This document shows, one piece after another, positions 138 to 34,715 of a stretch of DNA of 64,000 bases (position 1 is the stretch's first letter; every line of letters starts with the position of its first letter). The notes under the pieces were generated by a model that was not told the DNA's origin, did not search any database, and was given only the letters and a program-made list of their open reading frames with translations. The translations under genes were made by a program, and so were the position numbers. The DNA lies in NCBI GenBank assembly GCA_027340875.1, contig DAIENX010000002.1:25429-89428 (forward strand), in the 5' to 3' direction. Origin of the DNA: Elusimicrobiota bacterium (GTDB lineage Bacteria; Elusimicrobiota; Elusimicrobia; Elusimicrobiales; UBA9959).

Positions 138-776
138 ATGAACAAGAACATGAGAGTAACGACGAAGGCCAGGCACGCCTATACGCAGGCGTACGCCAAC
201 TACCTGCGCAGCGGGAACCTGGAGGAGGCCACGCGGCAGGTGGCGCAGGAGATTTACGAGCACAGGGGCAAGGCCCCCGGCACTCCGGACGGAGACTGGG
301 CGGAAGCCGCTAGGATAACGGCCGAATGGCCGGAGACGATAACGGAGGCCTCGGAGTCGCACCTGTTCGACAAGGCGCTGGCGAAGACGCGCGCCTGGCT
401 GAAGGACGTGGAAACGGAGCTGGACTACACCAATCCGAACGACGCCTACCGCGCCCTGCGCGCCGTTCTGCACGCCATCCGCGACAGGCTGCCGGTGCAG
501 GAGTGCGCCGAGTTCGCCTCGCAGATGCCGGTGTTGATAGCCGGCATGTATTACAGCGGCTGGACCCCGGCCAACAAGCCGGAGAAGCTGCGCACCGAGA
601 CGGAGTTCTTCGGGAAGGTGGGCGCCGCGCTGCCGCCCGGGGCGGACCCGGAGCGCGTTACCAGGGGCGTAATAGCCGTCCTGCAGAAGCATATCTCCCC
701 GGGGGAGATGAAGGACGTGAAGAGGAACTTTCCCGAGCGCCTGCGGTACCTCTGGGAGACCGAGGGAACGCACTGA
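138..776 (+). CDS. conserved hypothetical protein, DUF2934-like N-terminus plus DUF2267-like body
   Basis: 212-aa ORF with a purine-rich SD (AAAGGGGGGAAA) directly upstream of ATG 138. EIYEHRG..PDGDWAEA and ..HISPGEMKDVKRNFPERLRYLW resemble these DUF families as I recall them; not searched. Confidence 0.45.
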   Translation: MNKNMRVTTKARHAYTQAYANYLRSGNLEEATRQVAQEIYEHRGKAPGTPDGDWAEAARITAEWPETITEASESHLFDKALAKTRAWLKDVETELDYTNPNDAYRALRAVLHAIRDRLPVQECAEFASQMPVLIAGMYYSGWTPANKPEKLRTETEFFGKVGAALPPGADPERVTRGVIAVLQKHISPGEMKDVKRNFPERLRYLWETEGTH

Positions 777-821: not shown

Positions 822-1535
822 TCAGGCCTTGAGCAGCGGGAGCACGGCCTTCTCCAGGTCGCGCGCGAAGGCGGTGTTCAGCAGGTCGGCCGGCCTGCCG
901 AGGGCCGTTTCCAACCCGTCGTCGAACCGGATGCCCGGGGAGGAGCCGGCGCGGCCGGAGCGGCCGCGCATGTTCTCCACCACGCCCAGCAGCGGTACCC
1001 CCAGCCTGCGGTAGAGCTCCAGCGAGCGCTCCAATACCGACCTGGCCATAACCGACGGGGTCGTCACCGCCAGCACCTCGGCCTTGGGCAGCAGCCTTAT
1101 GGCGTCGAGCGCGGTGTCGTTTATGCCGGGGGGCATGTCCACCACCAGGAAATCAAGGTCGCCCCACAGGGTGACCGCCAGCATCTCCACCACCGCGCCG
1201 GAGATATCGGCGCCGCGCAGCGGCACCGCCCTGCCCGAAGAGAAGAAAGAGACCGACATGAACCTTACGCCGGACACCTCCGGCGGAAGAAGGCCCATCT
1301 CCTCCTCCGGGTAGGCGCCGTCGGCGCCCAGGGCCACGTGGGCTGACGCCCCGCAGAAGTCCAGGTCGGCCAGACCGGTCCTGTAGCCTTTCTTCGCCAG
1401 CAGCAGGGCCAGCGTGGAGGCCGTGACGCTCTTGCCTATGCCGCCTTTCCAGCCGGTGACGGCGATGACGCGCTTCACCCTGGCCAGCCTGTCTCCTATG
1501 ACCGAGGGCCTCGGGTCTATCCTCGTCGGGGTCAT
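822..1535 (-). CDS. Mrp/MinD-family P-loop ATPase, probable ATPase-type HypB (nickel-insertion partner of HypA)
   Basis: Start taken at Met62 of ORF 822..1718 (ATG 1533-1535), which overlaps the hypA stop as ATGA. Deviant Walker A VTGWKGGIGKSV and DLDF / VVDMPPG motifs are typical of Mrp/NBP35/MinD. The upstream part of the ORF is Arg/Pro-rich and overlaps hypA. Confidence 0.6.
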   Translation of the reverse strand: MTPTRIDPRPSVIGDRLARVKRVIAVTGWKGGIGKSVTASTLALLLAKKGYRTGLADLDFCGASAHVALGADGAYPEEEMGLLPPEVSGVRFMSVSFFSSGRAVPLRGADISGAVVEMLAVTLWGDLDFLVVDMPPGINDTALDAIRLLPKAEVLAVTTPSVMARSVLERSLELYRRLGVPLLGVVENMRGRSGRAGSSPGIRFDDGLETALGRPADLLNTAFARDLEKAVLPLLKA

Positions 1536-1933
1536 TTTTCCCCCTTGAGGTATTTGATGTAGACGCCGCGGCCCGACTTCACCTCGAAGTCGGGGCTCGC
1601 GCAGGCGGGGCAGGCCAGGAAGGCGTGAGCGAGCTCCGGTATGAAATGGATGTTCTCGCCTTCCTCGTCGGTCTTCTTCAGGTGCTCCAGCGTGAAGTCC
1701 TTGCCGCAGGCGCGGCACCCGAAGGCGGCGGCTTCCTCTATGAGCTTGAAGCTGCAGGCGGGCGGCGGCGTGTCCTTGAGCAGCTCGCGCAGCGCCGTGG
1801 AGAAGATGTCCCTGTCTATGGCCTGCAGTTCGCCCAGCACCACGCCTATCTCCGAGAGTCTGCGGATCTTCTCCGAGGCCGCGTGCTTGTTAGCGGATTT
1901 TACCACCGATTCGGCTAGAGCCCATTCGTGCAT
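1532..1933 (-). CDS. hypA: hydrogenase nickel incorporation protein HypA
   Basis: 133 aa. N-terminal MHEWALA (MHE Ni-binding motif) and two CxxC pairs (CRACG, CPACAS) forming the Zn site. Confidence 0.85.
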   Translation of the reverse strand: MHEWALAESVVKSANKHAASEKIRRLSEIGVVLGELQAIDRDIFSTALRELLKDTPPPACSFKLIEEAAAFGCRACGKDFTLEHLKKTDEEGENIHFIPELAHAFLACPACASPDFEVKSGRGVYIKYLKGEK

Positions 1934-1934
1934 A

Positions 1935-3113
1935 TCAGCGTCCTATGTCCGTGGGCGCGCGGCCCAGGGAGTTCAGCAGCTTCACAACGGCCTGGATGCG
2001 GGAAGGCACGTCGTCCTCCACGCCGGCCCGGCCGGGGTAGATCTCGTACTGCCTGCGGTACTTCACCGGGGTCACGTTGATCATCAGGGAGTTCGCGCCG
2101 GCCATCAGCCCTTCCCTGGCGCCGTTGTCCTTGTCGAGCGTCTCGAGCGCGGTGGTGACCAGGATGTTGGCCTCCGGGTTCATCAGCCGGGCTCGTGCTA
2201 TGGTGTCCAGCATGGAGCCCAGCGGCGGCAACTTCTCCGCGGAAAGCGGCGTCTCGGGGTGCGGGATGAACGGGCCGAAAGAGAACATCTCCGCGCCCAG
2301 CTCGGCGGTGAGCCGGATGTTCCTGAAGGTGTCGCGGTTGGAGCCGCCCGGCAGGCCGGCGAGGAAGCCCGTGATGATCATGTAGCCGAGTTCCCGGACG
2401 CCGCGTATCAGTTCCAGCCGCGCGTCCAGAGAAGCGCCGGGCTTCATGCGGCCGAACAGGTCCGGGTTCGAGGTCTCGAAGCGCATAAGTACGCCGCGGG
2501 CGCCGGCCTTGTAGAGCGCGGCGTAGGTGGAAAGCGGGCGCGGGCCGATGCTGACTATCAGCAGCACCGGGCAGCGCTTAAGGATGCCCGAGACTATGCG
2601 GGCGAGCTTCGCCTCGTCGTACCAGGGGTCCTCGCCGGACTGGAGCACCAGGGCCTTGAACCCCAGCTCCTTCACGGCGTATTCCACCGCGTCGAGGATC
2701 TCGTCCTCGGTCATGCGGTAGCGGCCGACGGCGGAGTTGTCGCGGCGCAGGCCGCAGTAGAGGCAGTTGGCCGCGCAATGGCTGGAGAACTCGAGGATGC
2801 CGTGCACGCAGCAGGAGTTGCCGAGCTTCTTCTGCCGTACGGCGTTGGCGCGCTCGTGGAGCGTGCGCGGCGCGGCGGCCAGCTTCCTGTCGGTGTCGCG
2901 CAGGCGGAAGAAGAGCCGGCGCCACTCGGCCATGATCTCCATGGCCTCGTCCTCCGGCACGGTCTGGATCACGAAACCGCCCTGCGCGTAGACGTAGTCG
3001 CCTACCGAGACGCTGGCCAGGCCCGTGTGCGCCTTCTTGGTCTCGTCGAAGTACTCTATGGTGGCGGCGAAGCCTTCTAGCTTTACCACCTTGCCGGGTA
3101 TGGCGTAGCACAT
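1935..3113 (-). CDS. hydE: HypC-like domain fused to HydE-type radical SAM maturase
   Basis: 392 aa. Residues 1-~70 (MCYAIPGKVVKLEG...GDYVYAQGGFVIQ) match the HypC/HupF pattern, including the invariant Cys2. The remainder carries SSHCAANCLYCGLRRDN (CX3CX2C followed by GLRRDN, characteristic of HydE) and a BioB/HydE-like TIM-barrel core. Confidence 0.75.
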   Translation of the reverse strand: MCYAIPGKVVKLEGFAATIEYFDETKKAHTGLASVSVGDYVYAQGGFVIQTVPEDEAMEIMAEWRRLFFRLRDTDRKLAAAPRTLHERANAVRQKKLGNSCCVHGILEFSSHCAANCLYCGLRRDNSAVGRYRMTEDEILDAVEYAVKELGFKALVLQSGEDPWYDEAKLARIVSGILKRCPVLLIVSIGPRPLSTYAALYKAGARGVLMRFETSNPDLFGRMKPGASLDARLELIRGVRELGYMIITGFLAGLPGGSNRDTFRNIRLTAELGAEMFSFGPFIPHPETPLSAEKLPPLGSMLDTIARARLMNPEANILVTTALETLDKDNGAREGLMAGANSLMINVTPVKYRRQYEIYPGRAGVEDDVPSRIQAVVKLLNSLGRAPTDIGR

Positions 3114-3122
3114 GGCGAGCTC

Positions 3123-4499
3123 CTAGAAGTAGAGGTCCCTGCGGCCCCTGGCTATCTGGGCGAGGCGCCTGCCGGCCTCTTCCCTCAGGGCCAGGTTCTC
3201 GATGCCGCCTACGCATCTGCGGATGAGCTCCCTGCCCTTCCGGCGCAGCCCGGCGTCGCCGAAGTCGCTCAGGTACTCGGCGAAGGTCAGGGCGGCGTTC
3301 AGGTCGCAGAACTTGTGGATGTGGCCGGGCTTGGAGAGCTCCATGAATCGCTCTCCGGTGCGGCCGCTGCGGTAGCAGGCCGTGCAGAAGCTGGGTATCA
3401 GGTCGCTCTCGGCCGCGGCGCGCACCACCTCGCGCAGCGGGCGGGCGTCGTGGATGTCGAACTGAGGCTGCCTGGCGCCGCTGCAGTAGCCGCCGGTCAC
3501 CGGCACGGAGCCGGCGGAAGCCTGCGAGACGCCGATGTCGAAGGCCCTGCGGCGGATCTCGGGACTTTCCCGGGTGGACAGGATGATGCCGGCGTAGGGC
3601 ATGGCCAGCCGGAGTATGGCTATCAGCTTCAGGAAGTCGGCGTCGCTGACGGGATGGGCCGGCTTGTAGCTGACCGAGGGGGCCTCGCGCAGCCTTGGCA
3701 CGGAGATGGTGTGGGGGCCGACGTTGTGCACTGCCTCCAGGTTCCTCGCGTGCGCGGCCAGGCCCAGCAGCTCGAAGCGCCAGTCGTAGAGCCCGAACAG
3801 GACCCCCAGGCCGACGTCGTCTATGCCGCCCTCGAAGGCTCGGCCCGGAGCCCCGAGCTGCCGCTCATAGTCCGCTTTGGGGCCGGTGTGCAGGCTCTCG
3901 TAGGTGGGGCGGTGATAGGTCTCCTGGAAAAGCTGGTAGGTGCCGATGCCGGCCTCCTTGAGCTTTCTGTAGTTCTCTGGTGTGGTGGCGGCGATGTTGA
4001 CGTTGACCCTGCGGATGTTGCCCTTCGGGACCTTCACCGAGTAGATCCTCTTTATCACGCTTACGATGTAGTCTATCGTGTTGCGGGACGGGTCCTCGCC
4101 GGCCTCGAGCAGGATGCGTTTGTGGCCCTGGCCTATCAGGAACCTGGTCTCCCTCTCCACCTCGGCCAGCGTCAGCTTGCGCCTGCTCATGCTCCTATTG
4201 GCGGAGCGGAAGTTGCAGTAGCAGCACTCGTTGACGCAGTGGTCGGAGACGTAGAGCGGCGCGAACAGGACCAGCCTGCGCCCGTATATCTCGCGCTTTA
4301 CTTCGGAGGCGGCGCGGAACAGCCGCTCGGTCAGCGCGGTATCGGTGACGTGCACCAGCCTGGCGACGTCGGCCAGGGCGAGGCCTTTCTTCTTCCGCGC
4401 CTTCTCTATTATCGCGGCGATCTCGCCGTTCGACGGGTTCTTGGCCCTGTCGAGCATGTCCTGCAGGAAGCCGGTCCTCAGCGATAGCGGCACGGTCAT
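3123..4499 (-). CDS. hydG: HydG-type radical SAM tyrosine lyase (H-cluster CO/CN synthon maturase family)
   Basis: 458 aa. It has the ThiH/HydG N-terminal cluster motif SDHCVNECCYCNF and the HydG-specific C-terminal motif SFCTACYRSGRTGERFMEL...HIHKFCDLNA (CX2CX22C). Confidence 0.85.
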   Translation of the reverse strand: MTVPLSLRTGFLQDMLDRAKNPSNGEIAAIIEKARKKKGLALADVARLVHVTDTALTERLFRAASEVKREIYGRRLVLFAPLYVSDHCVNECCYCNFRSANRSMSRRKLTLAEVERETRFLIGQGHKRILLEAGEDPSRNTIDYIVSVIKRIYSVKVPKGNIRRVNVNIAATTPENYRKLKEAGIGTYQLFQETYHRPTYESLHTGPKADYERQLGAPGRAFEGGIDDVGLGVLFGLYDWRFELLGLAAHARNLEAVHNVGPHTISVPRLREAPSVSYKPAHPVSDADFLKLIAILRLAMPYAGIILSTRESPEIRRRAFDIGVSQASAGSVPVTGGYCSGARQPQFDIHDARPLREVVRAAAESDLIPSFCTACYRSGRTGERFMELSKPGHIHKFCDLNAALTFAEYLSDFGDAGLRRKGRELIRRCVGGIENLALREEAGRRLAQIARGRRDLYF

Positions 4500-4556
4500 A
4501 GGTTCCTCCGATCCATAGTTGTCTGCCTGTGCCCGGCCGTGGCCGGGAAAAATAGT

Positions 4557-5045
4557 TCAACGGGGCCCGAATTCCAGCAGGCAGCCCAGTATCAGCCGCG
4601 CGGAGCTCTCTACTTCCCGCGACAGGCCGGCGCCGTAGGCGGTGTTCTTGGGCTGTATGCCCAGAAACACGGTGCGGGCGCTGGTGTCCTCGCCTATTAT
4701 CCCGGCGACTACGCTCAGCGGTATGGAATGGGTGGAGAGGGTGCCTTCTCCGATGTGTTCCGGAGCTATGACGCGCACCTCGCCCGGGCTGCCGCCGAAA
4801 TCCGCCGCGTCGATGAATATCACCTTCGCCGGCTTCAGCCCGGCGGCCTTGTCGACCACGCTCTCCGGCCTATCGAAGGCGTTGATGAGTCTGAAGCCCA
4901 GCTCCCGGCCCAGCAGGCGGCCGCCGATGAACGGCCCCACCCCGTCGTCGCCCCTGAACGGGTTGCCGACCGTTATCACGAGGGTGTCGCCGCCCTCGCA
5001 GGGGGCCAGCGCCTGCCTGGCTTCAGCGGTTAACGTAGGTGACAT
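4557..5045 (-). CDS. [NiFe] hydrogenase maturation endopeptidase (HycI/HyaD/FrhD family)
   Basis: 162 aa. VGNPFRGDDGVGP motif and a downstream His (STHSIPL). Overlaps the 3' end of the large-subunit gene by 23 nt. Confidence 0.8.
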   Translation of the reverse strand: MSPTLTAEARQALAPCEGGDTLVITVGNPFRGDDGVGPFIGGRLLGRELGFRLINAFDRPESVVDKAAGLKPAKVIFIDAADFGGSPGEVRVIAPEHIGEGTLSTHSIPLSVVAGIIGEDTSARTVFLGIQPKNTAYGAGLSREVESSARLILGCLLEFGPR

Positions 5046-6351
5046 TGAGCATATGCGTCGAGCAGGAGATGCAGGGGTCGTAGGCCCTTACCAGCATCTC
5101 GAGCGCGAGCGTTATCTCCTCTTCGGTCTTGTGCAGTATCTCCGGCAGCAGTTTCTTCATGTCGTGCTGGATATTGTTGATGTTCTGGTTCGTCGGGATG
5201 ATGCAGTTGGCGTTGACTATGGCGCCCTTGGCGTCCGTCTGGTAGTTGTGGAACAGCGTCCCGCGCGGCACCTCCACGGCGCCCACGCCGTCCCCGGCGC
5301 GGAGCGGGACCTTGCCCTGTTCGTTCACCCCGACCAGCACCTGCTCGTCGTAGTTGATCCCGCGCTTGCGCAGGTCGTTCAGGATGGCGATCGCGTCCTC
5401 CAGGCAGTGCACGCACTCCACCAGCTGGGCGGCGGTGTTGAGGTAGGGGTTGCGGCAGACGGGTTTCAGGCCTATCCGCTCGGCCACGGCCTTGGCGTCC
5501 GGGTGCAGCTTGGCGGAGTTGAGATTGAAGCGGGCCAGCGCGCCTACCGCGTAGGACTCGCGGCTGAGCTTCGTGAACTTGGCGGAGGAGCGCGGGTCCA
5601 CGAACTCGTTGGTGACCTTCCTGTACTCCTTCTTGCTCATCCGCACGCCGTCCGTGGAGCCGATGTCCCCCTCCAGGAACGGGTACTCGGGGCCGTCGTT
5701 GACCATGGCCACGTACTCGGTGTCGCGCTCGAACTCCGGGAACTTGAAGCCGGCGGCCAGGTCCACGGTCACGGCCATGTCCGCGCGCATGCCGCGCAGG
5801 ATGTTCAGCATGCGGTCTATGTCGTGCTCGGAGGGCAGCTTGGTGAAGCCTCCGGCGACGCAGGAGATCGGGTGCACATGGCGGCCGACCAGGATCTCGC
5901 AGAGGTCGTTGCAGTCCTTCTTCATGCGCAGTGCCCGCCTGACCACCTTGTTGTGCGTGGCCACCAGCGGCACGAAGCTCTTGACCCCCAGCATGTCCGG
6001 GGCTACCAGCAGGTAGATGTGCAGGATATGGCTGTCCAGCGTCTCGAAGTGCATCAGCAGCTTGCGCAGCTTCAGGGTCTGGTCGGTGGGGGCTATCCCG
6101 AGGGCGTCCTCGGCGGCCTGTATGGAGGCCAGCGAATGGCCGCACGAGCAGATGCCGCAGATGCGGCTGGTGATGTGCTGCGCCTCGAACACCGAGCGGC
6201 CGCGCAGCATGCCCTCGAAGAAGCGCGGGGCCTCGACGACGTTGAACTCGCATTTCTCTATGCGGCCCTCCCTGACGTTGACCACGATGTTGCCGTGGCC
6301 CTCGACGCGGGTGACGTATTCGCTCTTGATGTCTACGTTCTTGTTAGCCAT
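5023..6351 (-). CDS. hyhL: [NiFe] hydrogenase large (alpha) subunit, group 3b type
   Basis: Start at MANKNV (ATG 6349-6351) inside the longer ORF 5023..6954. N-terminal Ni-Fe motif RICGICSCGHS and C-terminal DPCISCSTH followed by a short cleavable tail (MLNVTYVNR). Group 3b is inferred from the AsrA/AsrB-like partner subunits. Confidence 0.88.
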   Translation of the reverse strand: MANKNVDIKSEYVTRVEGHGNIVVNVREGRIEKCEFNVVEAPRFFEGMLRGRSVFEAQHITSRICGICSCGHSLASIQAAEDALGIAPTDQTLKLRKLLMHFETLDSHILHIYLLVAPDMLGVKSFVPLVATHNKVVRRALRMKKDCNDLCEILVGRHVHPISCVAGGFTKLPSEHDIDRMLNILRGMRADMAVTVDLAAGFKFPEFERDTEYVAMVNDGPEYPFLEGDIGSTDGVRMSKKEYRKVTNEFVDPRSSAKFTKLSRESYAVGALARFNLNSAKLHPDAKAVAERIGLKPVCRNPYLNTAAQLVECVHCLEDAIAILNDLRKRGINYDEQVLVGVNEQGKVPLRAGDGVGAVEVPRGTLFHNYQTDAKGAIVNANCIIPTNQNINNIQHDMKKLLPEILHKTEEEITLALEMLVRAYDPCISCSTHMLNVTYVNR

Positions 6352-7094
6352 TATTTCTTTCCTTCCCTGCACTTGTTGTACATGTCCATCTTCGCGGCTA
6401 TCATCGCGGGGGTCACGTTGTACTTGGCCATCACGTCCTTGGCGGCGTTCTCGCGCGGGTTGCTGATCATGCCGCGGCAGCCGTAGCAGACGTTGTTGTT
6501 GTTGACGCACCAGGAATTGCAGCCCGCCCTGGTGACCGGGCCCATGCAGGTCACGCCGCGCTCGTACATGCAGACGTTCTCGTTGAACTTGCACTCCACG
6601 CAGACCGGGTGGTCCGGCACGGTATAGGGCATCCCCTTCAGGATGTGCTTGAGGACCTCCACCAGCTCGGGGATGTAGGCCGGGCAGTTGTTGATGGTGT
6701 AGTCCACCTTGACCACCTGGTGCAGCGGCCTGGTCTTGGCGGTGGGGAAGCTCTTGTGGTCGGCGCCGTAGACGTACTTGCCTATCTCCTCCAGGTCGAA
6801 CGAGTTCTTCATCCCGTTCACGCCGCCGGTGGCGGCGCAGGCGCCGAAGGCCACCAGGACCTTGGCCCTCTCCCGGATCTTCTTGAGCCGTTCCGCGGAG
6901 TGGTCGTCGGTGACGCTGCCCTCCACGAACGCTACGTCGTACTTCCATTCCCACTTCTCGGACATGACCTCGCGGAACTCCACTACGTCCACCAGCTCGA
7001 GCACGTCGAGCAGGGTCTCGCCCATGTTGGCGAGCTGCAATTGGCAGCCCTCGCAGCAGGACAGATCGAAGAAAGCGACTTTAGGTTTTGACAT
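6351..7094 (-). CDS. hyhS: [NiFe] hydrogenase small (delta) subunit, group 3b type
   Basis: Start at MSKPKVAFFDLSCCEGCQ (Met44 of ORF 6351..7223). Has Cys clusters for the proximal, medial and distal FeS sites (GACAATGG, CPAY, CVECK..C, GCNSWC..CYGC). Its TAA stop overlaps the hyhL ATG by 1 nt (TAATG). Confidence 0.85.
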   Translation of the reverse strand: MSKPKVAFFDLSCCEGCQLQLANMGETLLDVLELVDVVEFREVMSEKWEWKYDVAFVEGSVTDDHSAERLKKIRERAKVLVAFGACAATGGVNGMKNSFDLEEIGKYVYGADHKSFPTAKTRPLHQVVKVDYTINNCPAYIPELVEVLKHILKGMPYTVPDHPVCVECKFNENVCMYERGVTCMGPVTRAGCNSWCVNNNNVCYGCRGMISNPRENAAKDVMAKYNVTPAMIAAKMDMYNKCREGKK

Positions 7095-7108
7095 GGCGGT
7101 CCTCCGGG

Positions 7109-7951
7109 TCACATCTTGGCTACGTTCTTTATCCTGTCGTAGCTGAACACCGGCCCGTCCTGGCAGCAGTAGTAGTTGTCGATGCTGTCGATCTGGCAGT
7201 GCCCGCACTTCCCCATGCCGCATTTCATGTGCCGCTCCAGGGAGAGGATGATGTTGCGCTCGGCTATCTTCTTCTTCAGCAGCTCGGAGATCACGAACTT
7301 GTACATGACAGGGGGGCCTACCACCACGGCGAAGGTCCTCTCCGGGTTGATCGTGACGCCCGGGATGATGGAGGTTATCAGGCCGATGTTGCCGGCCCAG
7401 TCCGGGCTGCCCTTGTCCACGGTCACGTTGAAGTTGACGTCCACCCGCTTCTGCCAGAACTCCAGGTCGTCGGCGAAGAGCATCTCGCTGGGGTTGCGGC
7501 AGCCCAGCAGGATGTCCACCTTGCCGAACTCGCGCCGGTTGTCGATCACGTAGTTTATCAGCGAGCGCAGCGGCGCTATGCCGAGGCCGCCCGCCACGAA
7601 GATCAGGTCGTTGCCGGCCAGCACCTTGACCGGGAAGCCCTTGCCGAACGGGCCGCGGATGCCGATCTCGTCGCCGGCCTCGAGGGCGTGCATAGCGTTG
7701 GTGACCCGGCCGGCCGCGCGCACGCAGAGCTCGAAGGAGCCGCGCTTGGTGGGGGAGGAGCAGAGCGAGATAGGGGCCTCGCCCACGCCGAAGACCGAGA
7801 CCTGGACGAACTGGCCTGGCTCGTAGTCCATCGCGCGGCCGTTGTCCAGCTCTATCTCGAAGAGCTTCTCCGAGGGGGTCATCCGCTTGACGCGGATGAT
7901 GCGGCCTTTCCTGACGCGCCAGTTAGAGTTGACGAGCTCTTCCTTTATCAT
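7109..7951 (-). CDS. hyhG: hydrogenase gamma subunit, FAD/NAD(P)-binding with 2Fe-2S (AsrB/PyrK-like)
   Basis: 280 aa starting at MIKEEL (Met243 of ORF 7109..8677). Ferredoxin-reductase-type fold motifs (GPFG, VAGGLGIAP) and a C-terminal CGMGKCGHCQ cluster. Confidence 0.8.
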   Translation of the reverse strand: MIKEELVNSNWRVRKGRIIRVKRMTPSEKLFEIELDNGRAMDYEPGQFVQVSVFGVGEAPISLCSSPTKRGSFELCVRAAGRVTNAMHALEAGDEIGIRGPFGKGFPVKVLAGNDLIFVAGGLGIAPLRSLINYVIDNRREFGKVDILLGCRNPSEMLFADDLEFWQKRVDVNFNVTVDKGSPDWAGNIGLITSIIPGVTINPERTFAVVVGPPVMYKFVISELLKKKIAERNIILSLERHMKCGMGKCGHCQIDSIDNYYCCQDGPVFSYDRIKNVAKM

Positions 7952-8994
7952 GCGGCCTCCTTTACCAGTGCTGTAAGCGTTTCCTTGAGCCGGATGCCCG
8001 CCATGCAGGTCCGGGTGCACCTGCCGCAGCCGGTGCAGAAGAAGCGGTAGTACTTGCCGAGCGAGAAGCGGAACTTGCGGTAATGGCGGTGCCGCAGGCG
8101 CTCGGCCTGGCCGCTGCGGAAATTCTCGCCGCCGGCCACCTTGGCGAAGGTCTCGACCTCGCAGGAATCCCAGGTCCGGACGCGCTTGCCGCTCTTCAGG
8201 TCCAGGTTCAGCGTGTCGGCTATGTCGAAGCAGTAGCAGGTGGGGCAGACGTTGGTGCAGTTGCCGCAGCCCAGGCATTTGTCCCCGATGGCCTTCCAGA
8301 CCGGGCTGTTCTCGCTCTTGTCGAAGATGGCCGGGAGCTTCTTGCGGTCGACGTTCACCTCGTCCTTGAAGCGGGAGCGCTTGGCGTCCCTGATGGCGTA
8401 GAGCGCCTCCATCTGGGCCTGCGTGGCGGGCTTGAACAGGTTGCTGCTGTCCACCAGGTCGTCGCCGGCCTGGGTGTTCACGTGCGCCATGAAGACCTCT
8501 CCCATGTCGGTGAAGAACAGGTCGTAGCCGCCGTTGGGGAAGTTCGAGTTCATCAGGTTGCAGCTGGCGTGCTCGTCGCAGTACTCGGTGCACTCCAGGC
8601 CGATGACGGTTATGTTGTCCTTGCGGCGCAGGTAGTTGTAGTCGCGCGGTCTTTCGGAGAAGACGATGTTCAGGCACTGGATGCCGTTCAGGTCGCAGGT
8701 GTGGACTCCGAAGATGACGGTGTTCTCGTGCTCGAGCAGGGCCTCGGCGTTCTCCACGTGGCCGGTGCTGAAGCTCAGCATCGTCTCCTTCTGCGGCAGG
8801 AAGTACTTCTTGGGGGGCAGTATCGTGGGTATGTGCTTGAGGGCTATGTCGTTAGCGGAGGTGACCTCCGTGAAGGCGTAGTTGCCGTAGCCCTTGCTGA
8901 CCGGCGCCACCACCTTGTGATTGCGCGAGAGCTTCACGATGAAGCTGTTAAGGTCGTCTTTTCTGAGGATGAAGTACCGCGTGTGCGTTCCCAT
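7948..8994 (-). CDS. hyhB: hydrogenase beta subunit, 4Fe-4S dicluster protein (AsrA-like)
   Basis: Start at MGTHTRYF (Met32 of ORF 7948..9087) with GGAGG 6 nt upstream. CLGCGNCTNVCPTCYC and CTGCGRCTRTC ferredoxin motifs. ATGA overlap with hyhG. Confidence 0.8.
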   Translation of the reverse strand: MGTHTRYFILRKDDLNSFIVKLSRNHKVVAPVSKGYGNYAFTEVTSANDIALKHIPTILPPKKYFLPQKETMLSFSTGHVENAEALLEHENTVIFGVHTCDLNGIQCLNIVFSERPRDYNYLRRKDNITVIGLECTEYCDEHASCNLMNSNFPNGGYDLFFTDMGEVFMAHVNTQAGDDLVDSSNLFKPATQAQMEALYAIRDAKRSRFKDEVNVDRKKLPAIFDKSENSPVWKAIGDKCLGCGNCTNVCPTCYCFDIADTLNLDLKSGKRVRTWDSCEVETFAKVAGGENFRSGQAERLRHRHYRKFRFSLGKYYRFFCTGCGRCTRTCMAGIRLKETLTALVKEAA

Positions 8995-11068: not shown

Positions 11069-12235
11069 ATGGCGACGAAAAGACAAGGCCCCGCATGCGT
11101 GGTCTGGGAGCTGACGCTGGCCTGCAACCTCAAATGCCTGCATTGCGGCTCCACCGCGGGAGGGCGCCGCGAGGCCGAGCTTTCCACGGCCGAGGCGCTC
11201 GAGCTCTGTTCCGGCCTTAAGGAGGCCGGCTGCGGCGGCGTGGCCCTTATGGGCGGCGAGCCGCTGTTGAGGAAGGATTTCCCGGCCATCGCATCCAGGG
11301 TGAGGGAGCTGGGCATGGAGCTCTCCGTCATCACCAACGGCACGGTGCGGCCTGACGGGATATTTACCCTGCTGAAGAGCCTGGGCCCCAGGGCCGTGGC
11401 CATAAGCCTGGACGCGGCCGGCCCGGAGCTGCACGACCGGATACGCGGGGTCCCGGGCGCGTTCGCCAAGGCCTCTTCGTTCATCGAAGACGCGCTGAAA
11501 GCCGGCCTGCCGGTCAGCGTTATCACCACGGTGCATAAACTCAACATCTCCGAGCTTCCCGGGCTGCGCGATATAATAAAAGGAAGGGGGATAGCCTGGC
11601 AGGTGCAGACCGCCGGCGCGGAAGGCGGCCGTTTCTCGCGCGACCTGCTGCTGGACCAGGAGGAGTTCTATTCCGTCGGGATGTTCGTGGAATCCTGCCG
11701 CCGCGAATATTCCCCGGAGGAGCTCCCGGTCATAGGCGCCCATGACCTCGGCTACCATTCCCTGCTGCTGAAGAACGTCTCGCTCTACGAGAAATGGGAG
11801 GGCTGTCAGGCCGGCGTCTCGGTGGCCGGCATACGCAGCGACGGCGGCGTGCTCGGTTGCCTGGCGGTCAACGACGACCGCTTCGTGGAAGGCAGCGTGC
11901 GCAGGGAGCCGTTCCAGGCCATCTGGAGCCGGCCCGGCGCGTTCTCCTACGCGAGGGATTTTTCGCCCGGGAAGCTGGGGGAGAACTGTGCCGGCTGCGG
12001 TCACGCCGAGACCTGCCGCGGCGGCTGCAGCGAGATGTCGCTGATGAAGACGGGCCGTCCGCACAACGATCCCTATTGCTTCCGCGCCATAGAGGACAGG
12101 CTGTTCTTCAAAGGTCCCGGAGGGGCCGTCAGGAAGCTCGGCGCCTCTATCGCCGCCGGCCGCGGACGTGCGCCGTTCGGCCGGCTCGGCCGGATATTCT
12201 CGGGGAAAAGGGGGGAGGCCGGTGGAGACAGATAA
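11069..12235 (+). CDS. radical SAM protein with SPASM domain
   Basis: 388 aa. CNLKCLHC (CX3CX2C) at residues 19-26, GGEPLL, a twitch/SPASM region GCQAGVSVAGIRSDGGVLGC ... CAGCGHAETCRGGC. Confidence 0.8.
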   Translation: MATKRQGPACVVWELTLACNLKCLHCGSTAGGRREAELSTAEALELCSGLKEAGCGGVALMGGEPLLRKDFPAIASRVRELGMELSVITNGTVRPDGIFTLLKSLGPRAVAISLDAAGPELHDRIRGVPGAFAKASSFIEDALKAGLPVSVITTVHKLNISELPGLRDIIKGRGIAWQVQTAGAEGGRFSRDLLLDQEEFYSVGMFVESCRREYSPEELPVIGAHDLGYHSLLLKNVSLYEKWEGCQAGVSVAGIRSDGGVLGCLAVNDDRFVEGSVRREPFQAIWSRPGAFSYARDFSPGKLGENCAGCGHAETCRGGCSEMSLMKTGRPHNDPYCFRAIEDRLFFKGPGGAVRKLGASIAAGRGRAPFGRLGRIFSGKRGEAGGDR

Positions 12236-22085: not shown

Positions 22086-25000
22086 TCAGAACTGGAACGT
22101 AAGCGTGCTGCCCGCCTGGTAGGAGAGGTATTCCTCCTGCTTCAGGTATTTGTGCCACAGCCGTTGCAGGCCGAGGTTGAAGGTGAGACGCAGGTTCTTG
22201 GCGGCCTCGTAGTCCGCGCTGGAGTTCAGCGAGAAAAGCCTGTTGTTCTCCGCTATGGTTATGGGCGAGGTCTTGATCGCGTAGCTCAGCGTCGTGGTCC
22301 AGACTATGCGGTTTGTGAAGATGATGGCCTGCTTCATGAACGGCAGCTTGAGCCCCTTGGGCAGCTGGAAGTCTGACTTTATGAGCACGCTGGGCGTCAC
22401 GGTCCGGGTGTTGGCCGTGATCACTCCGAGCGCTCCCTTCGTCTTGTCGGATACGTAGTCCACCTTGGGGGTGAAGCGGAACTTGCCGCGGTCGAACGTG
22501 CCCTGCAGCGTGGCGTCGTCGTGGCGCGACTGCTGCGTGAAGCGGTCCACGCGCAGGTCCTTCTTGTCGGAGAGGCGCAGGTTGTAGCTGAGGGCGGTGT
22601 CTACCTTGTTCAGCAGCTTGAAGCGCAGGTCCACGCCATAGGTGCCAGCCGTCTCTAGGGAGACGGTCTTGGCCTCGTTGGTGTTGCGCGAGTATTTCAG
22701 GTTGACCGTCGCGCCCTGCGCCCAGCGCTGGACCCGCATCAGCGTCTCGAGCTGGGACAGCGAGAGTATCATGTCGGGGAAGGTGCGGTTCACGCTCTTG
22801 GATATGGTGCCGGTGACCTCGGAGCGCTGTACCGAGTTGGTGAAGTTGTTGGTCAGCGAGAGCGTCTTCAGCGGTGCCGCCCCTCCTGTCAGCCCGTAAC
22901 CCTCGAAAGGCTGCCAGCGCTGCGTGGAGTTAACGGTATCGCGCAGCGTTACCGAGTTGCGCAGCGCGAACGGGCTGGCGGGCTTGAGCGAGTCGCGCAG
23001 CCAGAGCCTGGAGCGGGTATTGTAGTCCTTCTCCACGTTCAGCCACGAGTCGCCGTCCTGGATCTGGTAGTTGGAGGACAGCACCAGCGAGCGGAGCAGG
23101 CGGTTCCGCGGCATCAGGTCGTTCATGCTGAAAGTCAGGCCCACGCCGCCCTGCGCGGTGCGGTTCACGGTCTTGATCTCGCCGGTGGTGAAGACATGGG
23201 AGGACCGCGCCACCGTCACCGTGGTGATGTTGAGGTTGTTGCTCTCTATCGTGGTCACGGAATAGTTGATGGACGGGTTCAGCCAGCGGGCGAACAGAAG
23301 GTTGGAATTGAAGTCCACCGTCTGCTGCAGCGACTTGTTGTAGCGCTCGAGGCTCAGCGGGTCGGAGAGAGGGCTCCTCTCCTCCCTCGCTGTCTGCAGC
23401 GAGTAGCCGGGGTTGAACGAGGACCCCGTCCACGGTATGAACGTGAGCTTGGCGCCGTAGGCGTCGGTGCGCTCGCGGGTCTTGTATAGGCCCGACAGCA
23501 GGAGGAGCTTGTCGGCGTTGTAGCTGACGCGGTTCAGACCCAGCGAGTAGTTGAGGTTGAGCGTCCGAGGGAAGAGCGGGAAGCTGCCGGGCACGCTGTA
23601 GCCCAGCGTGGCCGCGTAGAGGTCCCTGTCGTCCTTGCGGCTGAGCAGGCTGTAGTCCACTACCCCTTTGGTGTAGTTCAGGCCCAGCTTCGGCAGCGCG
23701 GGCAGGCTCAACGTGCCCGCCGCCGTGCCGTCGAACTTCTTCACGCGGCCCTGCTGCAGCGAATTGACCAGGTTGTTGGAGCCGGTGACCAGCGTGTTGG
23801 GCGTCACGGTTATCTGCCTGGCCGCGGTGAAGTTCATCGGGAAGAAGGCCAGGCGGCTGATGTTCAGATAACCGGTCTGCTGCTCGTTATCCTGGTTGGA
23901 GATGGCGGTGACAGGCGTCTGGAAGCTGCGGTCCATGAAGCGGTGCTTGCCGCCGAAGCTGATCCAGCCGGGTATCTCGAAGGCGCCCTCCACCTTGCGC
24001 GCGTTGCCGACCCGGGTCAGAGGCTTGGCGACGTGAAGCTCGTTGAAGTAGACGGTGCCGGTGTGCGCGGAGGAATCGGTGGCCTCCACGCCGGCTATGA
24101 ACTGCGGTATCTGCTGCAGGCTAGGGGCGCCGCTGGAGGAGACCGTCACTCCGAAGGTGCCGGAGGTCCAGACGTCCGGGATCTCGTCGCCGGTGATGTC
24201 CTCCTGGTCCAGTGTTATCAGCTTCCAGCCGGTGAAGTTCAGCGGCACGGAGGCCTTGAAATAATTGTTGCCGTCGCCGGCCTTCAGGTAGAAGGAGGCG
24301 CCCGCGTTCGCGCCGCTCTCGCTCTTGACCAGGAAGCGCAGCTCCTTGTGCTGGGAGACGTCTATCGCCCGGGTGAACTTGCGGTAGACGTAGACGGTGG
24401 ACGTGGAGTAGATCCCGGTGTAATCTATTGCCAGCGTCTGCTCCGTGATGGAGCTGGCATTGCTCTTCTTCTTCTGCTCGGAAACGGAGCCGTAGAGGTC
24501 GTTGAAGACCCGCGTCGCGTCCCCGCCGGCCTCGTAGATCGGGGTGTAGCCTGGGTTGTCCTGGTTGTTGACTCCGATGGCCTGCATCGAGCCCGGGCTG
24601 GTGGAGGACTGCACCGACCAGGTGTTGCCCACCGCGGAGATGCGGGCGAACTTGACGACGCCAGAGTTCGCCCCGCCGGCGGATTTCTTCAGCGTGATGC
24701 GGACCTGCTTGATGGCGCTCCACTTGTAGGTGTCGGTGGAGGTTATGGCCAGCGGCAGGTAAAGGGTGTGCCAGCCGGTGAAGTCCACGGTGTTCTTGCG
24801 GTTGCCTGGCGCCGGCGTGCTGTCGTTGTTGTCTATGAACGTGGTGCCGTTGACGTAGCCGAGGCTGCCGCCGGTGAAATCCTGCTGGTCCAGGCGGCCG
24901 TTCTTGTTCAGGTCCTCCGAGTCCAGGCGGCCGTTCCCGGAGCCGTAGCGCTTGCTGTTCTTGCCGGTGGGAGCGTAGAGCCAGCCGATGTCTTCCGCGC

Positions 25001-27440
25001 TGGAGACCTGGCTGTCACAGTTCAGGTCCTCGCTCTTCGGCGCTCCCGAAAGGACTAGGCCTGAGGTGCAGACGAAGTTCTGGCCGCCGGTGTTGTCGGA
25101 GTCTTCGTCGATCTGGCCCAGGTGGATGTTGAACTGCGGCCCGGGCGTGCTGGGGGAGTTCTGGCCGTACATCACCAGCTCGAGCACGTTCTTCTGCGAG
25201 AAGTCCAGGCCGGTGGGTGACAGCGGGTAGACTATCGAGACCTCGTTCGAGTTCGTGAAGTCGTAGCTGATATCCAGCACCTGCTGCGTGCCGTCCGAGG
25301 TGGCCGCCGGGTTGATGTCCCTGGCCTTCACGCTCTCGTTGTACCAGTCCAGCGACAGCGGGTCGGCCGGGCCGGAGGAGCCCGGGGGGTTTGAGGCGAT
25401 GAACCAGTAGTTCTTGTCCATCGACGGGGAGTCTTCCTGCTTGACGCCCTCCATGTTGTCTATCAGAGCGTATTTGTTCAGGTTGGGGTTCAGCCTGCTC
25501 TGCGCGGCCTCGGCCCCCAGCGTGGTCCTCAGCCCGAGCAGGTTAAGGCCCTTGAGCTGGGCGTCGCCTTCGTAGACCAGCATGCTGTTGGTCAGGTCGG
25601 TGATGTTGGGCACCGTGTTGGACTTGATGCCGCCCTGATAGAGCAGCGTGGAGCCGGCCGAGAAATGGCTGCCGAAATCGTAAGAGACTCGCCCGCCCAC
25701 CAGCGACTGGTTGCCCACGCCGCCGAACGGCGAGACCTCGTAGGTGATCTCTATCTTCGAGTCCTGGCCTATGCGCTCCGGGTAGTAGAACGTGATGAAG
25801 CCGGAGTCGTAGTCGATGAAATATTCCTCGTTGCGGCCCAGCTTCTTGCCGTCCACGCGCACCACCTCCGACTGCAGCACGATATTGGGCTCCAGGATGA
25901 AGGTCTTGAAGCGGTACGAGTATTCCACCCGGATGACGCGCTTGGAGACCGGGGCGGCGGAATAGATCTGCGGGTCTTCCTGCGAGGCGTTGTCCTGGTC
26001 GGCGAAAGGCTTGAGCAGATGGAAGATGCCCTGTTCGAAGTCCACCTCGATAGTGTCCGGGTAGGTCTGCGGCGGGTTCAGCGTGGAGCCCACCGGCGTC
26101 CGGTTCAGGTCCTGCACCTTCAGTATGAAGTTGCCGCTGCCGTTGTCGCGCACGAGATTGCTCTGGCCTATGGAGTAGTAGGTCTTGAGCTCCCGGCGGT
26201 GGGATACCTGCTGCGCGGCCACGGCCGTATCCGAGGAGATCGCGATGTCGTTCTGCGTCTTGATTATCGCCGGTATCGCCGGCGCCGCCGCCGCGTCCAG
26301 GGTCGACGTGGAGCTGTTCTGCGACAGCATGGTGCCGCCCGCGTTCTGGAAGTCTATTATCACCACGTCCTGCGGGTTCAGCGTACGGCCGAAGGTCACG
26401 AGGCCCTTGGCGTAGTCCATCACGTAGTCTATGCCGGGGCTCATCAGCTGGAACCGGCCGGTATAGCTGGAGGTCTGGACGGACATGTCCTTGCCGGTCA
26501 GGGCGAAGACGGTCACGTTATCCACCTGTGCCTGCGTCTGCTGGTCGATATAGACCCGCTCCGAACCCGACTTGATCGGCAGACGGGCCGTGTTGCCGAA
26601 GGTCACGTCGTAGTATTTGCGGCGCAGATAGTTGGTGTCGAGGACGTCGACCCCCTGGAACTGGGTGTTCCCCGTGAACTGCCGGGTCTTCGTCTGGCCT
26701 TTCGTGCGGGAGCCCACCACCGTCATCTTCAGGCGGTTGGTCCTCAGGTCGGCCCTGATGCCGAACAGCTGCTTGTTGTAGGAGACGAACTCCGTGGCCG
26801 GCAGCGAGAGGTCTATGTCGCCGAACGACACGTTCTGCACCACCTCGTTCGGGTCGCCCTGGTAGACCACCGAGATGTCCTGCTTGTCCTGCTTGGTGTC
26901 GTCGTAGTCGACGTTGACGGTGATCTTCTGGCCGACCTTGCCCTGCATGCGCACCTGCATCTGCTGTGTGATCTCGAACAGGCTGAGGCTGCGCGGGCGC
27001 GTGACGGTGGTCTGCTCGTTGATGAACTTCTTGCCGCTGTAACTGAGGGCTATCACCTTGCGGCCGGTGACCGACAGCGAAGTGCCGGATTCGCGGAACT
27101 CCACCTGCGGCTCCGGGGGGGCGGGGGCCTCCGTGGACACCGCCACGGCCGCCACCGGCGGCAGTTCCTCGCTCATGTAGCGGCCGGTCTCCACCGCTTC
27201 CCTGGCCTCGTTCCAGGCCTCGTTACTGTAGGTGATGGGCACGTCCTCGGCCATGCTGTCGATGTCCGCGGCTCCGGTGGAGGTGGACACCTCTCCGGAG
27301 TCCAGTATCGCGGACGGGTCCTGCCTGTCCAGCAGCAGGAAGCGGCCGCCGCCGGGGGAGAGCACGGCGAAATCAGCCGCCCGCGCGGGCGCGCAGCTCA
27401 GGGCCAGGGCAAGTGACAGCAGTACAGGTTTGAAGTTCAT
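22086..27440 (-). CDS. giant (1784 aa) outer-membrane beta-barrel protein, possibly SprA-like
   Basis: Signal peptide MNFKPVLLSLALALSCAPARA-ADF. The C-terminus ...AGSTLTFQF ends in an aromatic residue, typical of OMPs. Long Ser/Thr/Asn/Tyr-rich alternating segments and an acidic motif GRLDSEDLNKNGRLDQQDF. The SprA assignment is from memory only. Confidence 0.6.
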   Translation of the reverse strand: MNFKPVLLSLALALSCAPARAADFAVLSPGGGRFLLLDRQDPSAILDSGEVSTSTGAADIDSMAEDVPITYSNEAWNEAREAVETGRYMSEELPPVAAVAVSTEAPAPPEPQVEFRESGTSLSVTGRKVIALSYSGKKFINEQTTVTRPRSLSLFEITQQMQVRMQGKVGQKITVNVDYDDTKQDKQDISVVYQGDPNEVVQNVSFGDIDLSLPATEFVSYNKQLFGIRADLRTNRLKMTVVGSRTKGQTKTRQFTGNTQFQGVDVLDTNYLRRKYYDVTFGNTARLPIKSGSERVYIDQQTQAQVDNVTVFALTGKDMSVQTSSYTGRFQLMSPGIDYVMDYAKGLVTFGRTLNPQDVVIIDFQNAGGTMLSQNSSTSTLDAAAAPAIPAIIKTQNDIAISSDTAVAAQQVSHRRELKTYYSIGQSNLVRDNGSGNFILKVQDLNRTPVGSTLNPPQTYPDTIEVDFEQGIFHLLKPFADQDNASQEDPQIYSAAPVSKRVIRVEYSYRFKTFILEPNIVLQSEVVRVDGKKLGRNEEYFIDYDSGFITFYYPERIGQDSKIEITYEVSPFGGVGNQSLVGGRVSYDFGSHFSAGSTLLYQGGIKSNTVPNITDLTNSMLVYEGDAQLKGLNLLGLRTTLGAEAAQSRLNPNLNKYALIDNMEGVKQEDSPSMDKNYWFIASNPPGSSGPADPLSLDWYNESVKARDINPAATSDGTQQVLDISYDFTNSNEVSIVYPLSPTGLDFSQKNVLELVMYGQNSPSTPGPQFNIHLGQIDEDSDNTGGQNFVCTSGLVLSGAPKSEDLNCDSQVSSAEDIGWLYAPTGKNSKRYGSGNGRLDSEDLNKNGRLDQQDFTGGSLGYVNGTTFIDNNDSTPAPGNRKNTVDFTGWHTLYLPLAITSTDTYKWSAIKQVRITLKKSAGGANSGVVKFARISAVGNTWSVQSSTSPGSMQAIGVNNQDNPGYTPIYEAGGDATRVFNDLYGSVSEQKKKSNASSITEQTLAIDYTGIYSTSTVYVYRKFTRAIDVSQHKELRFLVKSESGANAGASFYLKAGDGNNYFKASVPLNFTGWKLITLDQEDITGDEIPDVWTSGTFGVTVSSSGAPSLQQIPQFIAGVEATDSSAHTGTVYFNELHVAKPLTRVGNARKVEGAFEIPGWISFGGKHRFMDRSFQTPVTAISNQDNEQQTGYLNISRLAFFPMNFTAARQITVTPNTLVTGSNNLVNSLQQGRVKKFDGTAAGTLSLPALPKLGLNYTKGVVDYSLLSRKDDRDLYAATLGYSVPGSFPLFPRTLNLNYSLGLNRVSYNADKLLLLSGLYKTRERTDAYGAKLTFIPWTGSSFNPGYSLQTAREERSPLSDPLSLERYNKSLQQTVDFNSNLLFARWLNPSINYSVTTIESNNLNITTVTVARSSHVFTTGEIKTVNRTAQGGVGLTFSMNDLMPRNRLLRSLVLSSNYQIQDGDSWLNVEKDYNTRSRLWLRDSLKPASPFALRNSVTLRDTVNSTQRWQPFEGYGLTGGAAPLKTLSLTNNFTNSVQRSEVTGTISKSVNRTFPDMILSLSQLETLMRVQRWAQGATVNLKYSRNTNEAKTVSLETAGTYGVDLRFKLLNKVDTALSYNLRLSDKKDLRVDRFTQQSRHDDATLQGTFDRGKFRFTPKVDYVSDKTKGALGVITANTRTVTPSVLIKSDFQLPKGLKLPFMKQAIIFTNRIVWTTTLSYAIKTSPITIAENNRLFSLNSSADYEAAKNLRLTFNLGLQRLWHKYLKQEEYLSYQAGSTLTFQF

Positions 27441-34706: not shown

Positions 34707-34715
34707 CAGGAACAG

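Follow-up and report, generated by a model that had tools for sequence, protein, structure and literature searches.

HydG and a HypC–HydE fusion encoded within [NiFe] hydrogenase operons: a candidate maturation module with no HypD, HypE or HypF alongside

The 64,000-nucleotide (nt) stretch of Elusimicrobiota DNA analysed here (contig DAIENX010000002.1 of assembly GCA_027340875.1; hereafter the window) carries nine minus-strand genes, running from position 8994 to position 822 in the order hyhB-hyhG-hyhS-hyhL-endopeptidase-HydG-fusion-HypA-HypB. They encode a [NiFe] hydrogenase and a set of maturation proteins that includes HydG and a HydE-like enzyme fused to HypC, two families associated with [FeFe] hydrogenases, and that includes no HypD, HypE or HypF. 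An earlier note on this DNA, made from the sequence alone, had listed the nine genes, and all of them were recovered with the order and coordinates it gave; the real reading frames were picked by third-position G+C content (the window is ~64% G+C) and then confirmed with profile searches. Counted in gene order from hyhB, the junctions measure -4, 14, -1, -23, 57, 9, 1 and -4 nt, where negative values are overlaps, and such short gaps and overlaps throughout mean that the genes form one tightly packed operon. The same note had put the junctions at overlaps of 1-4 nt or gaps below 60 nt, which holds for seven of them but not for hyhL and the endopeptidase gene, which overlap by 23 nt.

The first four genes encode the hydrogenase itself: a beta subunit of the 4Fe-4S dicluster, sulfhydrogenase/AsrA-like type (hyhB, 7948-8994, 348 amino acids (aa); NCBIfam ShyB/HydB 235/232 bits, Pfam Fer4_22), a gamma subunit with FAD/NAD(P)-binding and 2Fe-2S domains (hyhG, 7109-7951, 280 aa; NF006220 293.6 bits, Pfam FAD_binding_6, NAD_binding_1 and DHODB_Fe-S_bind), a small (delta) subunit (hyhS, 6351-7094, 247 aa; NCBIfam HydD/ShyD 170/163 bits, Pfam Oxidored_q6) and the [NiFe] large (alpha) subunit (hyhL, 5023-6351, 442 aa), whose best matches in the Protein Data Bank (PDB) are the sulfhydrogenase I alpha entries 9NEZ/5YXY at ~210 bits. 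The best NCBIfam and PDB matches of all four subunits are Shy/Hyd sulfhydrogenase subunits, at scores that do not reach the Thermococcales-specific equivalog cut-offs. With its four subunits and both the L1 and L2 cysteine motifs present, the enzyme is, on these matches, a group 3b [NiFe] hydrogenase. That the catalytic subunit is of the [NiFe] type, as had been claimed, is borne out by RICGIC at aa 63-68 and DPCISCSTH at aa 425-433 of HyhL, the latter followed by a 9-aa C-terminal extension for the endopeptidase. The arginine of the PRG motif and the PT(N) motif, which in known structures of [NiFe] large subunits hydrogen-bond both cyanides, are also kept, so that the pocket looks like a standard Fe(CN)2(CO) site for which two CN ligands and one CO would be expected. 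The endopeptidase (4557-5045, 162 aa) is of the HycI/HoxW type (TIGR00072 97.4 bits, cut-off 47.45; Pfam HycI).

Next in the operon lies the gene for HydG (3123-4499, 458 aa), a predicted radical SAM tyrosine lyase and Fe(CO)2(CN) synthon synthase. It scores 513.5 bits against the NCBIfam model TIGR03955, for which the cut-off is 312.15, and aligns end to end with HydG of Thermoanaerobacter italicus (4WCX, 503 bits), to which it is ~54% identical in the trimmed alignment. Both cluster motifs that the earlier note had reported could be located: the radical SAM motif CVNECCYC (CX3CX2C, aa 88-95, 4215-4238) and the C-terminal auxiliary-cluster motif CX2CX22C (aa 372-398, 3306-3386), the segment of which is included in the 4WCX alignment; both align with the same motifs in 4WCX and 4RTB. 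An identity as ThiH was rejected, since that model gives 272.7 bits, below its own cut-off of 380. By profile and alignment, then, the window protein is a full member of the HydG family. Canonical HydG breaks down tyrosine to build an Fe(CO)2(CN) synthon on its C-terminal cluster. In a neighbour-joining tree with three canonical reference sequences the crystallised HydGs fall within the spread of the fusion-linked ones, which lends no support to a separate clade of [NiFe]-linked HydGs; since the tree does not split the two sets, any specialisation would sit in HydE rather than in HydG.

The second radical SAM protein is encoded at 1935-3113 (392 aa; PF01455, PF04055 and BATS). Its N-terminal 75 residues form a HypC/HupF domain according to Pfam (PF01455, 50.8 bits, cut-off 28.5; TIGR00074 42.5 bits, below its cut-off of 48) and match HypC of Thermococcus kodakarensis (2Z1C). 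Within this domain (aa 1-78, 2880-3113) the N-terminal Met-Cys2-x3-Pro6 (MCYAIP in the window) is invariant across 68 aligned members of the fusion family. Gln44, also invariant in the family, replaces the histidine of free HypC (His51 in Escherichia coli, His45 in T. kodakarensis). The radical SAM part (aa 81-384; motif CAANCLYC at aa 113-120, 2754-2777) scores 224.7 bits with the HydE model TIGR03956, just under the cut-off of 254.6, and four HypC-fused relatives (P0121, P0122, P0137 and P0138) clear that cut-off with 263-371 bits. Residues 84-387 align with HydE of Thermotoga maritima (TmHydE) at 220 bits. An AF2 model built with the 68 family members is predicted with high confidence (pLDDT 93.7, pTM 0.91), and its ten best PDB matches in Foldseek are all TmHydE, complex-B-bound entries included (TM 0.83-0.88, top match 0.86; 37% identity). 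PylB, BioB and HmdB were discarded as identities, with 110, 72 and 58.6 bits, respectively; HcgA and HmdB, which act on the FeGP cofactor of [Fe]-hydrogenase, are likewise BioB/HydE-like radical SAM enzymes devoted to an iron-carbonyl cofactor, but the HmdB score lies far below that for HydE and no hmd or hcg genes occur near the operon. Profile, alignment and modelled fold thus agree that the protein is a HydE-type enzyme joined to HypC, and the assignment of the two radical SAM proteins to the HydG and HydE families stands on profile scores, PDB matches, the tree and Foldseek, with the HydE part just short of its cut-off.

The HydE part nonetheless differs from canonical HydE in its cavity. 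Just before strand β1 and the radical SAM loop, a Cys-x-His-Gly motif is present in all 17 representatives recognised as HypC-fused that show the pre-radical-SAM motif; in the window it consists of Cys102 and His104, with Cys101 ahead (CCVH, 2802-2813), aligned to Val51, His52 and Arg54 of TmHydE. Unfused representatives have [His/Tyr/Phe]-x-Arg-Gly at this position, with the exception of three apparently unfused proteins that share Cys-x-His (P0133, P0141 and P0147), one of which, P0141, lies directly after the C-terminus of a [NiFe] large subunit (…DPCMSCAAH…) and before HydG. An 89-aa open reading frame 5' of an unfused HydE in locus L095 was considered as a detached HypC and proved to be a helix-turn-helix protein. 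According to a computational study, Arg54, Thr134, Arg155 and Thr269 of TmHydE touch the CN ligands as the Fe(I) units dimerise, and crystallographic work cited there identifies Met224 as an Fe(I) ligand (PMC11826987). The fusion keeps several residues that bind complex B and Fe(I), with Arg211, Arg232, Met276 and Thr321 at the positions of TmHydE Arg159, Arg180, Met224 and Thr269, but Arg54 is changed to His104, Thr134 to Ile186 and Arg155 to Gly207 (an arginine stands one position earlier), and the auxiliary-cluster cysteines of TmHydE are absent.

The operon closes with two genes for nickel handling, which overlap by 4 nt. HypA (1532-1933, 133 aa) is a nickel metallochaperone of the long archaeal type (NF003008 145.8 bits, cut-off 125), the type that pairs with ATPase-type HypB, and the final gene (822-1535, 237 aa) encodes a protein of the Mrp/MinD family. 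The label Mrp/MinD ATPase in the earlier note was right as to family and can be made more precise: the best PDB match is the ATPase-type HypB of T. kodakarensis (3VX3, 204.9 bits), the next an ApbC-type Fe-S carrier at 109 bits, and on these scores the protein is an ATPase-type HypB rather than a generic Fe-S carrier. The pair thus resembles the HypA/HypB-AT system of T. kodakarensis, from which it differs in being found in a metagenome-assembled genome (MAG) of a Gram-negative bacterium and in being coupled to HydG and the HypC–HydE fusion.

No HypD, HypE, HypF, free HypC, HydF or [FeFe] hydrogenase was found in the 64-kb window, either by scanning its 40 remaining predicted genes with Pfam, where the only functions recognised were housekeeping and envelope ones, or by tblastn with E. 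coli HypB-F, verified HydF and verified HydA as seeds; the absence of HypD/E/F, HydF and H-cluster proteins reported earlier was thus confirmed in both ways.

The fusion is by no means peculiar to this organism. An exhaustive search of 1.84 billion representative proteins returned 408 relatives at E ≤ 1e-30, and the family comprises more than 120 clusters at 56-66% identity, all with PF01455 and PF04055 and most annotated 'HydE' by NCBI. In a scan of one genome per GTDB species relatives were present in 397 genomes, the closest at species level being 'bacterium isolate SKS1.bin104' (95% identity), and a metagenome scan added at least 486 further stretches. The 397 genomes come from Planctomycetota, Omnitrophota, Elusimicrobiota, Lentisphaerota, Firestonebacteria, WOR-3, Zixibacteria, Ignavibacteria, Margulisbacteria, Saganbacteria, Spirochaetes and five archaeal phyla of the DPANN group. 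Neighbourhoods were examined for the best 80 of the genome relatives and for 86 further loci, namely 80 from metagenomes (L097-L176) and six obtained through protein look-up (L091-L096). Each locus extended 10 kb either side of the match, giving ~2 Mb of flanks together, in which open reading frames were called and searched; the queries comprised the proteins of the window, HypB-F and HycE from E. coli, and seeds for HydF and HydA whose identity had been verified. The reading frame of the fusion was recovered in 79 of the 80 genome loci and 82 of the 86 further loci.

HydG is the commonest companion, matched in 55 of the 80 genome loci (immediately adjacent to the fusion in 54 of 79, and on either side of it among the loci) and in 59 of the 86 further ones; of ~160 loci, ~70% have it beside the fusion. 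Besides HydG, the endopeptidase and the [NiFe] large subunit are the genuine neighbours encountered most often, and no other family is common across phyla among the examined loci. In 27 of the 80 genome loci (binomial p ~7e-26 against an assumed background of 2%) and in 24 of the 86 further loci (19 of the 80 from metagenomes, 5 of the remaining six), ~30% of the total, the fusion has a [NiFe] large subunit gene no more than 10 kb away. The linked enzymes belong to at least three groups: 3b; Mbh-type membrane-bound group 4, with Mnh/Mrp subunits identified by Pfam; and Hox-like, with large subunits of ~480 aa and in some cases NuoF-like diaphorase genes. The linkage to [NiFe] genes is therefore conserved in relatives far beyond the Elusimicrobiota lineage, which the earlier note had asked about as a survey still to be made. 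The recurrent order is large subunit, endopeptidase, HydG and fusion, at times followed by HypA and HypB, an arrangement and placement typical of general maturation genes. Loci such as L015 and L037, like the window operon, carry endopeptidase, HypA and HypB and no HypDEF; indeed, with the E. coli seeds HypD, HypE, HypF and free HypC were found in none of the 80 genome loci and none of the 86 further loci. This negative result is not due to poor sensitivity, since the same seeds find archaeal HypD at 269 bits and archaeal HypE at 229 bits.

The association is closest where the genes have merged. Two proteins, P0121 (906 aa; HypC 46, HydE 348 and HydG 607 bits) and P0137 (881 aa; 51, 371 and 631 bits), are single HypC–HydE–HydG polypeptides. 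The gene for the former comes directly after hyhB-G-S-L, an endopeptidase gene and a gene for a cNMP-binding protein; that for the latter belongs to the locus of another [NiFe] hydrogenase, where it has the diaphorase-like genes on one side and the small/large subunit genes on the other, and HypA is encoded downstream. A further protein, P0148 (803 aa), joins HydE to HydG without HypC, and its HydE part has the canonical His-x-Arg, which indicates that it arose by a fusion of its own among ordinary [FeFe] maturases.

The [NiFe] and [FeFe] sites are a textbook case of convergence served by unrelated machineries, HypA-F using carbamoyl phosphate and HydEFG using tyrosine. Within the former, HypD acts as the scaffold, HypE and HypF make cyanide from carbamoyl phosphate, and HypCDEF builds the Fe(CN)2CO unit. 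The module described here resembles HypCDEF in its apparent target enzyme, in a HypC unit with the essential N-terminal cysteine and in the accompanying HypA, HypB and endopeptidase, but differs in that HypD, HypE and HypF are missing from the operon and from all related loci examined, and in that its HypC is not free-standing and has glutamine in place of histidine. It resembles HydEFG in its full-scoring HydG with both cluster motifs and in the fold of its HydE and four of that domain's ligand-binding residues, but differs in the joining of HydE to HypC, in the altered cavity, in the lack of HydF and of an H-cluster protein in the window, and in having a [NiFe] hydrogenase as its genomic partner. 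Because HypD, HypE and HypF are the only canonical maturation functions that the operon lacks, and HydG and HydE are found in that slot, replacement is the most economical reading. We would put it at about even chances that the operon encodes a [NiFe] hydrogenase together with a self-contained maturation set in which HydG and the HypC–HydE fusion occupy the place of HypD/E/F. More tentative, and in our judgement somewhat short of an even chance, is the stronger version in which the two fully replace HypD/E/F, both the CO and the CN of the [NiFe] site come from tyrosine, and the iron unit is captured at the Cys-Cys-x-His motif and delivered by the protein's own HypC domain. The idea in the earlier note that HydG/HydE chemistry supplies ligands to a [NiFe] site thereby gains support from the family placement, the conserved linkage and the HypC–HydE(–HydG) fusions, all of it evidence from comparative genomics.

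Such a pathway might proceed in four steps. Firstly, HydG would cleave tyrosine and form an Fe(CO)2(CN)(Cys) synthon on its C-terminal cluster, a chemistry established for canonical HydG and probable for the window enzyme because of its identity to T. italicus HydG and its intact motifs. Secondly, the HydE domain would bind the synthon and strip the cysteine by radical chemistry, which is suggested by the retention of Arg159, Arg180, Met224 and Thr269 (TmHydE numbering). Canonical HydE dimerises two Fe(I) units; here, thirdly, the mononuclear Fe–CO/CN unit would instead be captured at Cys101/Cys102/His104 in the barrel cavity and passed, undimerised, to Cys2 of the covalently attached HypC domain. 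Fourthly, this domain could dock on the large-subunit precursor and insert the iron unit; HypA and the ATPase-type HypB would then add nickel, upon which the endopeptidase would trim the C-terminus. Iron insertion via HypC, nickel insertion via HypA/HypB and endopeptidase trimming are established for those families.

Several observations weigh against this proposal. The ligands do not match, for the HydG synthon is (CO)2(CN) and the residues of HyhL lead one to expect (CN)2(CO), a conversion that the scheme leaves unexplained. HypD, HypE and HypF may lie elsewhere in these genomes, outside the flanks of up to 10 kb. About half of the loci, including most of those from DPANN archaea, have no hydrogenase gene within 10 kb; several Planctomycetota loci have the fusion without HydG, and in several Omnitrophota the HydG/fusion pair adjoins a molybdopterin oxidoreductase. 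Genuine [FeFe] components also occur. HydF was found in only three of the ~160 loci (L035, L045 and L134), which represent one Omnitrophota lineage, L134 being the same contig as L045, and there a distance of 4 kb separates HydG and the fusion from a true HydF and an [FeFe] cluster of the bifurcating type. A true HydA (Fe_hyd_lg_C) is present in ~4 loci, and in the Firestonebacteria-like L030 and L127 HydA precedes a fusion–HypA–HypB–SPASM radical SAM series. It may thus be that in some organisms the pair serves [FeFe] enzymes, also or exclusively.

Of the alternatives, the one that fares best is that HypD, HypE and HypF are encoded elsewhere and that HydG and the fusion provide only CO, or a pre-carbonylated iron, to HypCD. 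To our knowledge the source of the carbonyl ligand in anaerobic [NiFe] hydrogenases is a long-standing open question, and a supplier of this kind would be the anaerobic counterpart of HypX, which serves aerobic, O2-tolerant [NiFe] enzymes. Like HypX, the module would be a dedicated, lineage-restricted carbonyl source beside hydrogenase genes, although the families and the chemistry are unrelated (decarbonylation of formyl-tetrahydrofolate/formyl-CoA as opposed to radical SAM cleavage of tyrosine) and HypX works alongside HypCDEF. The retained HypC domain could dock on HypD, the ligand mismatch would be easier to accommodate if HypE and HypF delivered the cyanide, and the strong linkage to [NiFe] operons is accounted for equally well by an auxiliary role and by full replacement. 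Yet in none of ~160 loci does HypD come closer than 10 kb to the gene that bears HypC, although canonical operons such as that of E. coli have hypC beside hypD; operons such as those of the window, L015 and L037 hold all the remaining maturation genes (endopeptidase, HypA and HypB) without HypDEF; and the histidine needed in the HypC/HypD system has given way to an invariant glutamine. We consider this alternative unlikely, with perhaps a chance of one in five.

Less probable again, and in our view doubtful, is that HydG and HydE are ordinary maturases which, together with HydF, serve an [FeFe] hydrogenase elsewhere in the genome, their position among [NiFe] genes reflecting co-regulation and the HypC domain being an accessory iron-handling module. 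The HydG cannot be told apart from canonical HydG, many of the fusions carry the NCBI annotation HydE, and HydF or HydA are neighbours in L035, L045, L030 and L127. These few cases are nevertheless to be set against [NiFe] large subunits of three groups in ~50 loci, with HydF confined to one lineage and HydA to ~4 of ~160 loci. HypC, moreover, is a [NiFe]-specific chaperone family, and both the fusion and the triple fusion occur inside [NiFe] operons, and none of the examined HydEs of the Cys-x-His subtype retains Arg54, a residue that canonical HydE conserves. That the pair builds or repairs some different iron-carbonyl or iron-sulfur cofactor, for the Omnitrophota molybdopterin oxidoreductase or an unknown DPANN enzyme, with the [NiFe] site as one of several uses, would suit the Omnitrophota pairs that follow a Fer4_11/NrfD/molybdopterin enzyme and a conserved 483-aa protein, as well as the DPANN loci lacking a nearby hydrogenase, but appears very improbable given that only the endopeptidase and the [NiFe] large subunit recur across phyla beside HydG and that HypC, HypA, HypB and the endopeptidase all belong specifically to [NiFe] systems.

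Full-text searches of the literature turned up no account of HypC fused to HydE, nor of HydG/HydE taking part in the maturation of [NiFe] enzymes, in keeping with the earlier suggestion that the route is undescribed; a 2024 paper in Cell on archaeal hydrogenases surveys HydEFG and mentions neither the [NiFe] role nor the fusion. The parts themselves are known, and what is new is the combination of known families, the fusion and the apparent target. That [NiFe] operons contain a conserved module of HydG and HypC–HydE, and never have HypDEF close to it, points to a natural combination of the [NiFe] and [FeFe] maturation machineries. Should this be true, these anaerobic [NiFe] enzymes would have a concrete enzymatic source of CO and the origin of their carbonyl ligand would be settled, and, across hundreds of uncultured species of bacteria and archaea, both major hydrogenase classes would rely on a common route of organometallic biosynthesis. 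Matches to hydE and hydG in genome surveys, now taken as markers of [FeFe] maturation, would need to be reread, DPANN archaea included, and a compact cofactor cassette of two genes, at times one, would become available for heterologous hydrogenase production. Isotope-labelled tyrosine combined with Fourier-transform infrared spectroscopy allows a direct test of the hypothesis.

Some of the neighbourhoods deserve further description. In L035/L045 (= L134), the stretch at 15.3-21 kb, 4 kb downstream of HydG and the fusion, encodes HydF (HydF_dimer, HydF_tetramer), a Rex-like regulator, a sensor kinase, NuoE/NuoF-like subunits and the start of HydA, with an NfnAB-like pair upstream; this lineage is the only one with the module beside full [FeFe] machinery. 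The fusion stands alone, with neither HydG nor hydrogenase genes in the flanks, in eight loci from Planctomycetota and Brocadiia MAGs (L008, L011, L012, L014, L016, L019, L067 and L164), and in L008 the next gene encodes a phosphopantetheinyl transferase. In six of the Omnitrophota loci (L006, L007, L022, L026, L027 and L107) the 483-aa protein, which belongs to no Pfam family, is encoded at ~7.1-8.6 kb, overlapping the start of hydG; it comes after the Fer4_11/NrfD/molybdopterin oxidoreductase set, and no hydrogenase lies within 10 kb.

Among the remaining genes of the window, one for a radical SAM/SPASM protein (11069-12235, plus strand) lies upstream of the hydrogenase operon, at a distance of ~2 kb. 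Firestonebacteria-like loci (L030, 5435-6430; also L120, L127 and L111) have relatives of this SPASM gene directly after fusion–HypA–HypB, and the gene may be a further accessory of the HydG/fusion module or a coincidence. On the other side of the operon, a DUF2267 gene (138-776, plus strand) converges on the ATPase-type hypB, a position kept only in the closest relatives (L001, L002 and L010). A 1784-aa open reading frame (22086-27440, minus strand) has coding-like codon bias (third-position G+C 0.91) and no Pfam match at E ≤ 1e-5. Finally, the DNA polymerase III alpha gene dnaE (32640-36152, plus strand) is interrupted by an in-frame TAA at 34704-34706, which replaces the tyrosine codon of the conserved YQEQVM (…TYGTMV*QEQVME…). 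Either an error of sequencing or assembly or decay to a pseudogene is the probable cause; L008 has an unbroken Brocadiia homologue of 1148 aa.

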